DNA from: a virus
Lineage: Duplodnaviria; Heunggongvirae; Uroviricota; Caudoviricetes
Reading direction: 5' to 3' (one strand)
Virus record (IMG/VR): IMGVR_UViG_2639762987_000006
DNA: 5,345 nt
Position numbers and translations under genes: made by a program. How positions within the stretch are numbered: position 1 is the stretch's first letter; each line of letters opens with the position of its first letter. The notes below the pieces were generated by a model, which had not been told where the DNA came from, searched no databases, and saw nothing but the letters and a program-made list of their open reading frames with translations. Below, piece after piece: positions 230-5,345 of this stretch.

Positions 230-290
230 NNNNNNNNNNNNNNNNNNNNNNNNNNNNNNNNNNNNNNNNNNNNNNNNNNNNNNNNNNNNN
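230..290. other. Run of 61 ambiguous bases (N): assembly or scaffold gap
   Basis: Direct reading of the sequence; the true length of the gap is unknown. Confidence 0.99.
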
Positions 291-650
291 TTTAATTATC
301 AATAAATTACCAAACATGCTGCCGCCGCCATGGAAATGCAAAAACTAGTCTTTTTCCGCGACGCTCCCGCCCCGTGGCAGGGCCCCTCACTGGTAGGACC
401 CGACAGCCTGACAACCGTGACGAGCATCTGAAACAGAGCTTTACATAATGGCATGGGGATAATTCAGAAGGACATCACAGCATGCCCACACAAATTAGTG
501 TGAGTGTCCTGTTTCTTACTACGCGCAGGACTGACGAGCATGAGGGGAAAATACGAGAACCGAAATGCCTTATCTTCAGAAATGCAGCCAGCATCCGAAC
601 TGGACGATATTGTAAATTCACCTAAATACGAGGCATTGCTGTAGTTGAAT

Positions 651-702
651 TACAGTACTGTATTAGCCTGACAGTGACAGAATACGATATTGACTCTGTC
701 AC
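651..702. repeat. Perfect 12-bp palindrome TACAGTACTGTA (651..662), followed by a tandem TGACAG TGACAG (669..680) and an 8-bp inverted repeat AGTGACAG (673..680) / CTGTCACT (695..702) separated by 14 nt
   Basis: Seen directly in the sequence. It lies in non-coding DNA about 40 nt downstream of the 739..945 minus-strand ORF. It could be a protein-binding site or an RNA stem-loop. Confidence 0.4.
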
Positions 703-738
703 TTGTGAAATGGTCAGAATGGTTAGCAGTTATGGTGA

Positions 739-945
739 TCAATCAACCACCAGGGAATAATCCTTCGTATTCTTATCGTGCTTCACTAACGCTGCCTCAA
801 TTGCCCTGAATGCTTCCAGAGATACTTGATGTTCTATACATGCAATTATAACATCCGGGTAACTCATCGAAATGGTGCTATTAAGCATAGTTTTTACACG
901 AACCTGCTCTTGGGAGGGGGCCTCAGTACATTGATCTTTATGCAT
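739..945 (-). CDS. Hypothetical small protein, 68 aa; function unknown
   Basis: Tracked ORF. The ATG at 945 is preceded by GGAG with a 7-nt spacer (minus strand: ggagcgacaaaATG). Internal in-frame ATGs at 888 and 867 lack a Shine-Dalgarno sequence. No family recognised by eye. Confidence 0.4.
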
Positions 946-1129
946 TTTGTCGCTCCATGCGTTTGTTCTTCACTTGTCGCTAAAAATATAACTTCAAATC
1001 TTTGAGCGTGGAAGTGTGGAAGTCACTGCGCGTTGATCTTGCATACATCGGTCGTTTGTTTCCCACCTGGCATATCAGAAAAACCAGGTTTTATAGCGGA
1101 ATCAATACTATGTATTTTCCACCTGACTT

Positions 1130-1159
1130 TTGACATAAATCATCAATAAAACATATAAA
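1130..1159 (+). promoter_or_regulatory. Candidate sigma70 promoter for the DUF1398-like gene: -35 TTGACA (1130..1135), 18-nt spacer, -10 TATAAA (1154..1159)
   Basis: Read directly from the sequence: perfect -35 hexamer and a 5/6 match at -10 in an AT-rich region, about 70 nt upstream of the ATG at 1233. Confidence 0.35.
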
Positions 1160-1232
1160 GGTCAGACCAGATTGAAACGATAAAAACGATCTTGCAAACT
1201 ACGTGCCCTCATACCATATGGAAGGTTTATCT

Positions 1233-1643
1233 ATGGATCAGGTAGTCATTTTTAAACAAATATTTGATAAAGTTCGAAACGATTTAAACTATCAATGGTT
1301 TTATTCTGAGCTAAAACGTCACAATGTCTCACATTACATTTACTATTTAGCTACAGATAATGTTCATATTGTATTAAAAAATGATAATACAGTGTTATTA
1401 AAGGGCCTAAAAAACATTGTGTCTGTCAAATTTTCAAAGGATAGGCATCTTATAGAAACGACCGCTAATAAGCTGAAATCCAGTGAGATCACATTTCAGG
1501 AATACAGAAGAAACCTTGCTAAAGCAGGAGTTTTTCGGTGGGTTACAAATATCCACGAACAAAAAAGATATTACTATACCTTTGATAATTCATTACTCTT
1601 TACTGAAAACATACAGAGCACATCACAAATATTTCCACACTAA
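1233..1643 (+). CDS. ydfO: DUF1398-family protein (YdfO/YbcV-like prophage protein), 136 aa; function unknown
   Basis: The tracked ORF (1203..1643) was trimmed to the ATG at 1233, which has GGAAGG 7 nt upstream; the product then begins [23 protein letters not shown]… Its sequence and 136-aa length match my recollection of the E. coli K-12 prophage proteins YdfO (Qin) and YbcV (DLP12), which lie beside lysis cassettes. The gene is visibly AT-rich compared with the lysis genes. Identity is from memory and needs a database check. Confidence 0.7.
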
Positions 1644-1651
1644 ACCATAAC

Positions 1652-1680
1652 GTCCGGTTTTTTCTACCCCAGCACCGGAC
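1652..1680. repeat. 7-bp inverted repeat GTCCGGT (1652..1658) / ACCGGAC (1674..1680) with a 15-nt T-rich loop, immediately downstream of the DUF1398 gene
   Basis: Seen in the sequence. The T-tract lies in the loop rather than 3' of the stem, so it is not a canonical intrinsic terminator. Confidence 0.3.
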
Positions 1681-1962
1681 TGGCTGACATAAAGAGCAAC
1701 CCCACGTTAAGTTGACGCGTTAATAACCCGGTGTACATCGTTTTTGATTATTCCCCCACACTCGCGCAGAAGGAGTTCCCCGTCAGGCTACAGTCATAAT
1801 TAATGCAAGAGTACAGCGACGATACAGCGCACAGAAATAAATCAGGTATCCATTGACTTCACAAAGACGGTGCATAGCATCGACAGGAGTAATTGCGTAA
1901 ATTGAACTCTTGGCACACTTTAGCCACAGGCGAATCTTCAGCGGATTATCCTTGGCCGGTTT

Positions 1963-2725: not shown

Positions 2726-3259
2726 TTATCTGTCGATACCCCAGCACGCCAGCGCGCTCTCCTGGTCACGACGGGATACCTGACCGTAGCAGTTGTTTGA
2801 ACGAATACGGCAGTCTCTGCCACCGTCCTTAATCCACCAGCGAATCGCCTCACACGCTCCCCTGCGATCACCTGCATTAATTCGTTTATAAAACGTCGAC
2901 GGGAAACACTTACTGGGACCAATGTTGTACGGACAGAATGACGCGATCCCCGCTTTCTGGGGTTCGCTCAATGGCACTTTGATGTTTTTCTCCACCCATG
3001 CCAGCGCCTTATCACGCTCAATGGCGTTGACCTGGTCGCATTTTTCCTTCGACAGTTTCATACCGGGAAAAACGGGTTTTCCATCCACCATCGTGGCCCC
3101 CCGACAGATGGTCCAGATGCCGGAACCATCGCGGTATGCCGTTGTGTGGTTACCCTCTTTTTCGTCCAGAAACTGGTCAAGTATCTGAGGAGCAGACGCG
3201 CCTGCAGCAATCAGCGCCAGAACAGCAGCTGACAGGGCGTATTTGATTTTTGCGCTCAT
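2726..3259 (-). CDS. R: Phage endolysin of the T4-lysozyme type (glycoside hydrolase family 24), 177 aa, with an N-terminal SAR or signal segment (RrrQ-like)
   Basis: Tracked ORF. The catalytic triad spacing E-x8-D-x5-T in …DEKEGNHTTAYRDGSGIWT… is that of T4 lysozyme. The N-terminus MSAKIKYALSAAVLALIAAGASAP is a weakly hydrophobic Ala/Gly-rich segment. It pairs with an S21-type pinholin upstream. Length and sequence match my recollection of E. coli prophage lysozyme RrrQ. Confidence 0.9.
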   Translation of the reverse strand: MSAKIKYALSAAVLALIAAGASAPQILDQFLDEKEGNHTTAYRDGSGIWTICRGATMVDGKPVFPGMKLSKEKCDQVNAIERDKALAWVEKNIKVPLSEPQKAGIASFCPYNIGPSKCFPSTFYKRINAGDRRGACEAIRWWIKDGGRDCRIRSNNCYGQVSRRDQESALACWGIDR

Positions 3260-3314: not shown

Positions 3315-3629
3315 CTAACAACCCGTAATCGAGTTATCAGAACTGTTAATTTTTATGGTATACCGCGCCTCTGAACAGGGGCGCGTTTCTGGCAACAGCT
3401 CGTCCCCTTCACATAACCCGGCAGCAACATCCAGGAAGACCTGTCTGATGCTCCTTCTGGCTGCTGCCTCATAAAACTCCAGCGCGGCACCTTCAACACG
3501 GTCCAGCGAGATGTCCAGGTCAAAAATTTCACCGTCAAAGCGTTCTTTGTCCCGTAACGCTAAAGTTACCGTAACTTTATTCTCAAAATTGCGGATCCCT
3601 TTCACAATCAGTTCATATTTTTGAGTCAT
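3315..3629 (-). CDS. ydfR: DUF1327-family protein (YdfR-like), 104 aa, lying between holin and endolysin; function unknown
   Basis: Tracked ORF. Its ATG at 3629 is 4 nt after the holin stop, with GGAGAG upstream. It has no signal peptide or transmembrane segment. Position and sequence match my recollection of YdfR in the Qin prophage lysis cluster. Confidence 0.75.
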   Translation of the reverse strand: MTQKYELIVKGIRNFENKVTVTLALRDKERFDGEIFDLDISLDRVEGAALEFYEAAARRSIRQVFLDVAAGLCEGDELLPETRPCSEARYTIKINSSDNSITGC

Positions 3630-3633
3630 TGAA

Positions 3634-3849
3634 TTACTCTCCCCGTGCAGCCTTACGCTTGTCTTCTTTAATCTTGAAATAAAGGTTTGTCAGGTACGTC
3701 AGCAGGCCAAATACCAGGCTACCCAGCACACCTATTGCTGCCCACTGTGAGGGCGTGACTTTATCGAGCAGCTGTAAAAACCAGTAGCCAGCACTGCCTG
3801 CGGAGGTGCCGTAGGCAATGCCTGTTGAAATTTTGTCCATGGATTTCAT
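3634..3849 (-). CDS. S: Class II holin / pinholin of the phage 21 S type, 71 aa, with a dual-start motif
   Basis: The tracked ORF (3634..3906) was trimmed to the ATG at 3849, which has GAGGTGAGG 5–6 nt upstream. The product [71 protein letters not shown] has two transmembrane segments and a basic C-terminus, and closely matches phage 21 S21 / EssD / EssQ as I remember them. The starts at Met1 and Met4 (MKSM) would give the antiholin and holin forms. Confidence 0.88.
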
Positions 3850-3949
3850 AGCCTCACCTCCGCACGGAACGGATGGCATAGTTATTATGTGTAGGCTTCC
3901 AGACACATCAATCGGAGCCTTAATTGATATATATGCTGGAGACGATGCA

Positions 3950-4100: not shown

Positions 4101-4496
4101 CTAACCTCGCATGTCAAAGCCAGATTTCTGAAAATCTCTGTAGACTTCCGGATTGTTGAAGGCCGGAAATTTGGCTTTATGAGCTGCGGACTTTATCGCT
4201 TCGCAATAGGCTTTATCACCGTTACTGGTAGATATTTTTAACGCCGTGCCATCCTGAGAGAATTCCATATGCAACCTGCATTTTTTCCCTTTCCAGTTAT
4301 GCGGCTCATCAAGTTTGGCATTAATTGCAGCTCTGATTCCCCGCGCTTGCGCCCCCCATTCATCCTGATCATCCCAGCGTCCTGAACTGCAACTACCTGT
4401 AGCAGTAGTTTTGTGGCAATCTGAAGGGTGTAAAGGTGTGCATCCCGCAACAAAACCGACCCAAAAAGTCAACATAACGATTTTCTTTAATCCCAC
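4101..4496 (-). CDS. Lipoprotein with a divergent TolA C-terminal (domain III)-like domain, 131 aa precursor
   Basis: Tracked ORF with a GTG start at 4496 (GAGGAG 6 nt upstream). The signal peptide MGLKKIVMLTFWVGFVAGC carries lipobox VAGC, and Thr at +2 predicts outer-membrane sorting. The C-terminal half (…KKCRLHMEF…GDKAYCEAIKSAAHKAKFPAFNNPEVYRDFQ…) shares its Cys pair and PEVY…FQ motif with the neighbouring TolA-III-like paralog. Confidence 0.75.
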   Translation of the reverse strand: MGLKKIVMLTFWVGFVAGCTPLHPSDCHKTTATGSCSSGRWDDQDEWGAQARGIRAAINAKLDEPHNWKGKKCRLHMEFSQDGTALKISTSNGDKAYCEAIKSAAHKAKFPAFNNPEVYRDFQKSGFDMRG

Positions 4497-4646: not shown

Positions 4647-5075
4647 TCAGGGTTTAAAATCCAGCACCCCATTTTGAAATACTTTATATACTTCCGGCGA
4701 AGGGGGGGCAGGTATATCAGCATTCTTTATCGCATTCATCGCTTCACGACATAAATCGAGGTCTCCACTTTCTCTTTTAACCTCCAGTAGAAGGCCATTC
4801 GGGGCCATATGCATTCTCAGTGTACACTCTTTTCCTGAATACTTACTCGCATCCCCGAACTGTTTTTCGATGGCGCTCTTGATTTGATGGGCATACAGAC
4901 GGATATCCTCACTAACATCAGAAGTACGTTCAGATGAACTCACATACTGTGTCTCTATTGCTTTATCGGAGTAATATGATGTACGGTCATGATAATTTGT
5001 CGATACAGCATCAGTGCACCCGATAATAATCCCACTAATAATCAACGTAAGAATTGATGCGCTACGAAAACCCAT
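4647..5075 (-). CDS. Lipoprotein carrying a TolA C-terminal domain III homolog, 142 aa precursor
   Basis: Tracked ORF with an ATG at 5075 (GAGGA 5 nt upstream). The signal peptide MGFRSASILTLIISGIIIGC carries lipobox IIGC, followed by a Ser/Thr-rich linker. The C-terminal ~85 aa (…QIKSAIEKQFGDASKYSGKECTLRMHMAPNGLLLEVKRESGDLDLCREAMNAIKNADIPAPPSPEVYKVFQNGVLDFKP) aligns closely with the C-terminus of E. coli TolA as I remember it (…QIKSAIESKFYDASSYAGKTCTLRIKLAPDGMLLDIKPEGGDPALCQAALAAAKLAKIPKPPSQAVYEVFKNAPLDFKP). Confidence 0.8.
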   Translation of the reverse strand: MGFRSASILTLIISGIIIGCTDAVSTNYHDRTSYYSDKAIETQYVSSSERTSDVSEDIRLYAHQIKSAIEKQFGDASKYSGKECTLRMHMAPNGLLLEVKRESGDLDLCREAMNAIKNADIPAPPSPEVYKVFQNGVLDFKP

Positions 5076-5134: not shown

Positions 5135-5345
5135 ACAGCGAATCAGATCAAATAAAACGCACATTTGTTAACATTTACACAAAGTCTGCGTGGGATATTC
5201 TGAAAGAATATCCATAATGTGGAGAGAATCTATTGAAGTGCATGGTGCCGGGTGCCTCCCGGTGAATTCAGTACCAGCACCTGAATCCGCGATTATCCCA
5301 TATACCTACTCGCTGATTGCCCCTCCGCACAGGGGGATTCACCAT

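Follow-up and report, generated by a model that had tools for sequence, protein, structure and literature searches.

The gene at 1233-1643 on the + strand of the 5,345-nucleotide stretch of DNA analysed here (the window), which is part of an Escherichia coli lambdoid prophage, is an ordinary copy of the known, uncharacterised YdfO/YbcV prophage gene family (DUF1398), and it is accessory cargo in a known hot spot between Rz and cos/terminase. It can reasonably be described as moron-like and independently transcribed, and its product is probably a dispensable cytoplasmic accessory protein that is made by the prophage under host control and binds a cellular partner. The better candidate for the regulatory module is a conserved box together with the promoter-like element TTGAAA-17 nt-CAAACT (P2), rather than the TTGACA/TATAAA pair located further upstream (P1). 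The gene is already known, with a RefSeq annotation, a solved structure and a place in the genome of phage lambda; it is an unexplained gene in the best-studied phage and in over half of E. coli genomes.

The features of the locus are as follows.

739-945, - strand (the late-operon strand): divergent neighbour of 68 aa, homologue of YbcW/lambdap79 (phrog_657, E 4e-46)
1130-1135, + strand: P1 -35 hexamer TTGACA; with its spacer also present in lambda and K-12 ybcV
1154-1159, + strand: P1 -10 hexamer TATAAA, lineage-specific
1160-1176, no strand assigned: invariant block GGTCAGACCAGATTGAA, identical in 97 of the 97 loci compared
1160-1168, no strand assigned: GGTCAGACC, core of GGTCAGACCAGATTGAA, fitting the PdhR-box core GGTnnnACC
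1172-1177, + strand: P2 -35-like TTGAAA, part of the conserved promoter-like footprint
1195-1200, + strand: P2 -10-like CAAACT, in which the second base is A and the sixth is T, and TG ahead of it at 1193-1194
1220-1225, + strand: Shine-Dalgarno sequence GGAAGG, 7 nt ahead of the ATG
1233-1643, + strand: DUF1398 coding sequence, YdfO orthologue, 136 aa; ATG at 1233 is the RefSeq start for the identical gene
1652-1680, + strand: hairpin GTCCGGT, 15-nt loop, ACCGGAC, just 3' of the DUF1398 stop codon
1963-2427, - strand: Rz spanin, convergent neighbour and last gene of the lysis cassette (Pfam Phage_lysis, E 1.4e-52)
2025-2207, - strand: Rz1, embedded in Rz (phrog_3198 match)
2726-3259, - strand: lysozyme
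3315-3629, - strand: DUF1327/YdfR, between holin and lysozyme
3634-3906, - strand: holin

The first-pass annotation, which was made from the letters alone, assigned the gene to DUF1398, and the homology and fold comparisons bear this out. The protein matches Pfam DUF1398 (PF07166) at E 5.9e-46 over the whole profile (positions 1-119 of 119), with 155.8 bits against a gathering cut-off of 22, and matches PDB entry 2HH8, 'hypothetical protein YdfO', at E 2.4e-87, sharing its fold. At the amino-acid level it is 94% identical to K-12 YdfO and 78% identical to both K-12 YbcV and lambdap78; YbcV (in DLP12) and YdfO (in Qin), which had been named as relatives, are indeed homologues in an equivalent position. 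Lambda's own copy, the solved structure 2HH8, the conserved PdhR box and the nearer promoter-like element had been overlooked. The open reading frame list gives a longer form of the gene (1203-1643, +), and the GGAAGG ahead of the ATG at 1233 is kept in the window, lambda, ybcV and ydfO upstream types in the upstream alignment. The reading frame encodes a real protein, since pairwise dN/dS values of 0.17-0.37 indicate purifying selection.

The protein (16.4 kDa, pI 9.5, no cysteines) contains no hydrophobic or membrane segment, the maximum Kyte-Doolittle value over 19-residue windows being 0.48, and should therefore be cytoplasmic; neither a signal peptide nor a lipobox is present. The YdfO fold is a well-defined domain that consists of two alpha-alpha-beta-beta-beta halves, and a fold search returned YdfO itself as the only structural relative, making this an orphan fold. 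An origin of the two halves by internal duplication was considered and set aside: comparing their profiles gave only a weak signal (E 0.004, probability 8.6%), and the case rests mainly on the secondary-structure pattern, which is suggestive only.

Many complete genomes, that of strain MS6198 (NZ_CP015834.1) among them, match window positions 1000-1960 with 100% identity. In MS6198 an antiterminator, two TolA-domain genes, a holin, YdfR, a lysozyme, Rz, a 68-aa gene, a terminase and head genes follow one another on one strand, and the sole gene on the opposite strand is a 'DUF1398 domain-containing protein'. The orientation and composition described in the first-pass annotation are both correct. 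The DUF1398 gene is on the + strand and convergent on the lysis cassette, all genes of which are on the - strand, with the facing 3' ends (DUF1398 at 1643, Rz at 1963) separated by a gap of 319 bp; its GC content is 0.309, compared with 0.529 for Rz, 0.536 for lysozyme and 0.502 for holin, and with 0.47-0.54 for the lysis genes overall. On the other side, the gene at 739-945 occupies the position of ybcW in DLP12 and of lambdap79 in lambda.

This placement recurs widely, as had been claimed. In a gene-order screen of 119 fetched loci, nearly all that extend far enough show the order small terminase (-), DUF3950 (+, optional), YbcW-like (-, optional), DUF1398 (+), cargo, Rz (-), R (-), S (-), so that the gene sits in the slot between lysis cassette and small terminase on the strand opposing the late operon. 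The cargo between DUF1398 and Rz is variable: some loci have Bor, GnsB/CspI or a different gene there, and others have none. The screen showed no conserved partner, as DUF3950 and YbcW are each missing from some architectures. A DUF1398 homologue of 39% identity retains slot and orientation, a homologue of 27% identity is located between Q and the holin, and homologues of 24-33% identity, as well as K-12 YcgX, are outside prophage late regions, including non-phage chromosomal sites. Close homologues occur in 43 phage records, compared with 719 for homologous Rz. Among 5,426 complete E. coli genomes, 3,165 have a match to at least part of the 961 bp at window positions 1000-1960.

Two groups of database matches were rejected. 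Matches in unrelated taxa (Pseudomonas, Bacillus-like genera, Flavobacterium, Cohnella, Shewanella and others) share with lambda an identity of ~79% to the query, many of them on contigs of ~3.5 kb, and are most likely lambda control DNA left in assemblies, not a real distribution. In a 233-aa DUF3950-DUF1398 'fusion' family (P0001, 761 member sequences), Trp stands where ynfO has its stop codon, and translating its own loci with table 11 does not yield the protein; ynfO and ydfO share a reading frame, with an open 19-codon spacer between them, and the fusion is most likely a gene-calling artefact in which TGA was read as Trp.

Among the known systems, the lambdap78 and YbcV loci are similar to the window in having the divergent 68-aa ybcW/lambdap79 gene, TTGACA with its spacer, the box and P2, and window positions 602-1832 align at ~80% to both lambda and DLP12. 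In both of these bor comes next in the same orientation, whereas the window lacks bor; lambdap78 itself (47048-47452, complementary strand) adjoins it. Like DUF1398, lambda bor, a classical moron, is located between Rz and cos, is transcribed against the late operon and is dispensable for lytic growth, and it is reported to be expressed from the lambda lysogen (PMC7067206). The resemblance does not extend to the products: Bor is an outer-membrane lipoprotein with a serum-resistance phenotype, and the DUF1398 protein is unrelated to it in sequence. Qin also differs from the window, with a co-directional DUF3950 gene, ynfO, upstream of ydfO, and with gnsB, ynfN and cspI as cargo between ydfO and Rz, where the window has none.

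The term moron is said to have been defined by Juhala et al. in 2000, for an autonomous accessory module in a phage genome. The first-pass annotation described the gene as a moron expressed independently of late transcription, and moron-like is a fair description: presence is patchy (43 records against 719), the cargo of the slot is variable, lambdap78 is non-essential, the base composition deviates from that of the lysis genes, and the gene is antisense to the late operon. In lambda, CRISPRi knockdown of lambdap78 gave efficiencies of plating of 1.9 and 1.3 (PMC10695390). Because the gene is antisense to the late transcript, its sense mRNA needs a promoter of its own, and there are two promoter-like elements on the + strand, the lineage-specific P1 and the conserved but weak P2. 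As to a terminator of its own, there is no terminator-like site on the + strand after 1643. The hairpin at 1652-1680 has a stem that is conserved in lambda, DLP12, PhiR70 and Qin, where Qin shows a single compensatory change from T:A to C:G. Lacking a U-tract, this hairpin does not qualify as a canonical terminator, and the folds downstream of the gene, including this hairpin, are no better than those of shuffled sequences. A terminator search after lambdap78 in lambda gave a weak candidate only.

The gene had also been credited with a strong-looking sigma70 promoter, and the sequence is present as described. P1 matches 11 of 12 consensus positions with an 18-nt spacer and is the best sigma70 match found in a scan of the whole window. 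Matches of at least 11/12 are expected by chance 0.13 times per window over both strands, and 12% of dinucleotide shuffles have one; for the 287-bp intergenic region, read on the + strand, the proportion falls to 0.5%. The sigma70 spacer optimum is 17 nt, one fewer than in P1. P1 contains no TGn extended -10, and the consensus scanner does not list it because the sixth base of its -10 hexamer is not T (-7T is missing).

P1 is not the conserved promoter element of the family. In the upstream alignment, lambda has CAAGGA and ybcV has CAAAGA in the columns of the P1 -10, and the region is absent in ydfO-type loci, which are the majority of close homologues and have upstream the 3' end of a co-directional DUF3950 gene; in these loci, including Qin, homology to the window starts only at 1159, and there is no TTGACA/TATAAA promoter. 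P1 is thus a rare lineage-specific variant, with TATAAA at its -10 in 8 of 97 loci; of 5,426 complete E. coli genomes, 38 have the window-type region 1100-1240 at an identity of at least 95%. Three substitutions from CAAAGA or CAAGGA to TATAAA may have created, in the lineage of the window, a second, upstream promoter candidate, the start site of which would be overlaid by the PdhR box. This rare lineage provides a natural promoter variant for comparison.

P1 is central to an alternative reading in which TTGACA-18 nt-TATAAA is a strong constitutive promoter in the lysogen and the product either serves in anti-phage defence or modifies the envelope. The 11/12 match, its rarity by chance in the local region, the sharing of its -35 and spacer with lambda and ybcV, and the use of the same slot by bor, a known lysogenic-conversion gene, are all in favour; the missing -7T, the 18-nt spacer, and the restriction of TATAAA to a small set of genomes, with lambda, ybcV and ydfO-type loci lacking it, argue against the promoter. 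As to the product, no defence family in PADLOC-DB v2 matches the protein at E values up to 0.01, and the fold has no relative among defence proteins, leaving the suggested defence role unsupported; the suggested envelope modification is unlikely for a protein with neither signal peptide nor membrane segment, and a structural role is likewise unlikely. Taken as a whole, we regard this alternative as improbable.

The promoter-like element that is preferred here, P2 (1172-1200), lies 42 bp downstream of P1 and is part of a conserved footprint. The window gene, lambda p78, ybcV, ydfO, ycgX and the homologue of 39% identity all have the pattern TTGA..-N15-TG-CA.ACT in front of them, and it ends 32-36 nt ahead of the ATG. 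The footprint joins GACCAGATTGA(A/T)(A/G) to TG-CA(A/G/C)ACT through a spacer that is always 17 nt long, and is conserved down to 39% identity; the flanks GACCAGATTGA and TGCAnACT are invariant in four divergent upstream types, compared with only 5 of the first 15 spacer positions. Within the spacer, lambda and DLP12 differ from the window in having GATAAT in place of GATCTT. Read as a promoter, P2 has the critical A and T of the -10 but would otherwise be weak, matching 8 of 12 consensus positions, which is under the scanner threshold, and its TG is one base out of the extended -10 register. The K-12 paralogue YcgX, which is encoded beside bluR and has 47% identity, also has a P2-type upstream footprint (GACCAGATTGAAG-N15-TGCACACT), but differs from the window gene in its location outside the prophage late region and in its imperfect GGTnnnACC core (GGACAGACC).

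GGTnnnACC occurs twice in the window, compared with 0.82 expected. The PdhR sites identified by gSELEX upstream of K-12 ybcV/ybcW and ydfO are exactly the GGTCAGACC box, and in a pdhR mutant ybcV and ybcW mRNA are down ~10-fold; the in-vitro PdhR signal at the ybcV and ydfO sites is weak, at 556-820 compared with 9,889 for pdhR (PMC7660256). With regard to the PdhR regulon, the core at 1160-1168 is the same as these published sites, binding and regulation having been reported for the K-12 paralogues only. Where the upstream region is of the ydfO type, the end of the DUF3950 reading frame runs into the box (in Qin, the ynfO stop codon is inside it), and part of the conservation of the box could be a coding constraint.

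From these sequence relationships, the ancestral promoter would be P2, a weak conserved element with a predicted start near 1207, and the centre of the GGTCAGACC box would then lie ~43 bp upstream of that start, roughly the position of an activator. This position, although it departs from the textbook -41.5, agrees with the reported positive effect of PdhR. The PdhR and P2 regulatory details of this locus are tentative, and we would put them at somewhat short of an even chance. A published Cappable-seq supplement contains no coordinates matching the start of any family member. Two further candidates were rejected: a conserved RNA structure in the 5'-UTR, where RNAalifold found no covarying pair and the region has no Rfam match, and the FNR site reported for nohA/ydfO, which is absent from the window.

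A more specific scenario is that PdhR (or the related FadR) switches on DUF1398 via the box and the weak promoter to the benefit of the lysogen, and that the lineage of the window escaped this control via the stronger upstream promoter. We consider this combination improbable as a whole; if true, the benefit to the lysogen could be one such as a new phage exclusion or tolerance to membrane or solvent stress.

Expression data for the K-12 paralogues are consistent with transcription under host control. Upon ionic-liquid shock, ydfO mRNA is up 12-fold by microarray to 116-fold by qPCR in K-12, where its home, Qin, is a cryptic prophage; no induction of ydfO was seen in cells exposed to the chemical from the outset, and in one test the promoter region of ydfO, once cloned, then failed to drive useful expression (PMC4077768). 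Adaptation to sabinene raised ybcV in one strain (PMC7181518), and under copper stress ybcV ranks with the genes that change most (PMC13618251); overexpression of ybcV alters glycogen content (PMC2853380), and DicC overexpression changes ydfO. YdfO overexpression is also said to raise oxidative-stress resistance (PMC4077768, citing Wang 2010), though the main text of Wang 2010 makes no mention of ydfO. Regulated sense transcription of ydfO and ybcV in cells with silent, defective prophages supports independent expression, not protein activity. In the preferred reading the gene, as dispensable lambdoid-prophage cargo antisense to the late operon, is transcribed from its own promoter, and the protein most likely binds a cellular partner and in this way acts in the lysogen when certain metabolic or stress conditions prevail.

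Alternatively, the protein could act during infection, for example as an anti-defence or host-takeover factor that its own promoter expresses transiently on the incoming genome. It is kept under purifying selection in fully functional phages including lambda, and the non-essentiality of lambdap78 was seen only on the laboratory K-12 host, as would be expected of an anti-defence gene. However, the gene is also retained in the long-defective DLP12 and Qin and at the non-prophage ycgX locus, in K-12 without infection the ydfO and ybcV transcript levels change with host regulators and stresses, and no homology or fold ties the protein to known anti-defence proteins, which together make this possibility quite unlikely.

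It is very improbable that the functional product is the transcript itself, with a promoter directed against the late operon damping leaky lysis-to-packaging read-through by transcriptional interference or antisense RNA. The convergent orientation, the conserved hairpin after the stop codon and the lack of a terminator, owing to which transcription would enter Rz in antisense, fit such a role, but selection acts on the reading frame at the protein level, the product has a well-defined domain fold, and paralogues exist where no late operon is opposed.

The reading of the protein as a virion or structural component, which follows from database labels (PHROG 413 'head protein', matching at E 5.7e-85; 'head protein' for lambdap78 in RefSeq NC_001416; 'putative envelope protein' in older GenBank records), is effectively refuted, as the lambda entry bears the mark 'Predicted by GeneMark' and cites no experiment, lambdap78 CRISPRi did not reduce plating (PMC10695390), the gene is antisense to the late operon from which all structural proteins come, most phages with the same lysis genes lack it, homologues are present at non-phage chromosomal sites, and membrane and secretion signals are absent. 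The 'head protein' and 'envelope protein' labels are spreading in databases and should be dropped.

For the divergent neighbour, CRISPRi against lambdap79 reduced plating ~10^4-fold, yet the gene is listed as non-essential (PMC10695390); the loss is probably a polar effect on packaging genes. A 2026 preprint on an NADase defence domain names lambdap79 six times. To the left of this gene, window positions 230-290 are 61 masked bases (N) upstream of the terminase gene, and positions 1-229, left of this run, differ from the MS6198 prophage, which matches 1000-1960 perfectly.

Within the lysis region, the DUF1327/YdfR-family insert between holin and lysozyme recurs in many related loci. An insert of ~300 bp between lysozyme and Rz contains a small open reading frame (2429-2602, -) that matches phrog_6632 at E 1.4e-29 and has a C-terminal hydrophobic stretch; the RefSeq record of the MS6198 prophage has no CDS annotated where it falls. 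Just upstream of it is a hairpin (2603-2635) with a 13-bp GC-rich stem followed by T's on the - strand.

Two tandem small genes (4101-4496 and 4647-5075, both -) lie between the Q region and the holin and encode proteins that end in a TolA domain (Pfam E 1e-14 and 2e-23, respectively; phrog_5772), each with an N-terminal lipobox-like signal (FVAGC and IIGC); the encoded proteins could be decoys for Tol-dependent phages or colicins. At the right end of the window, positions 5186-5345 (-) match the sRNA STnc100 (Rfam RF02076; 91 bits, E 2e-19), the 5' end of which is cut by the window edge.
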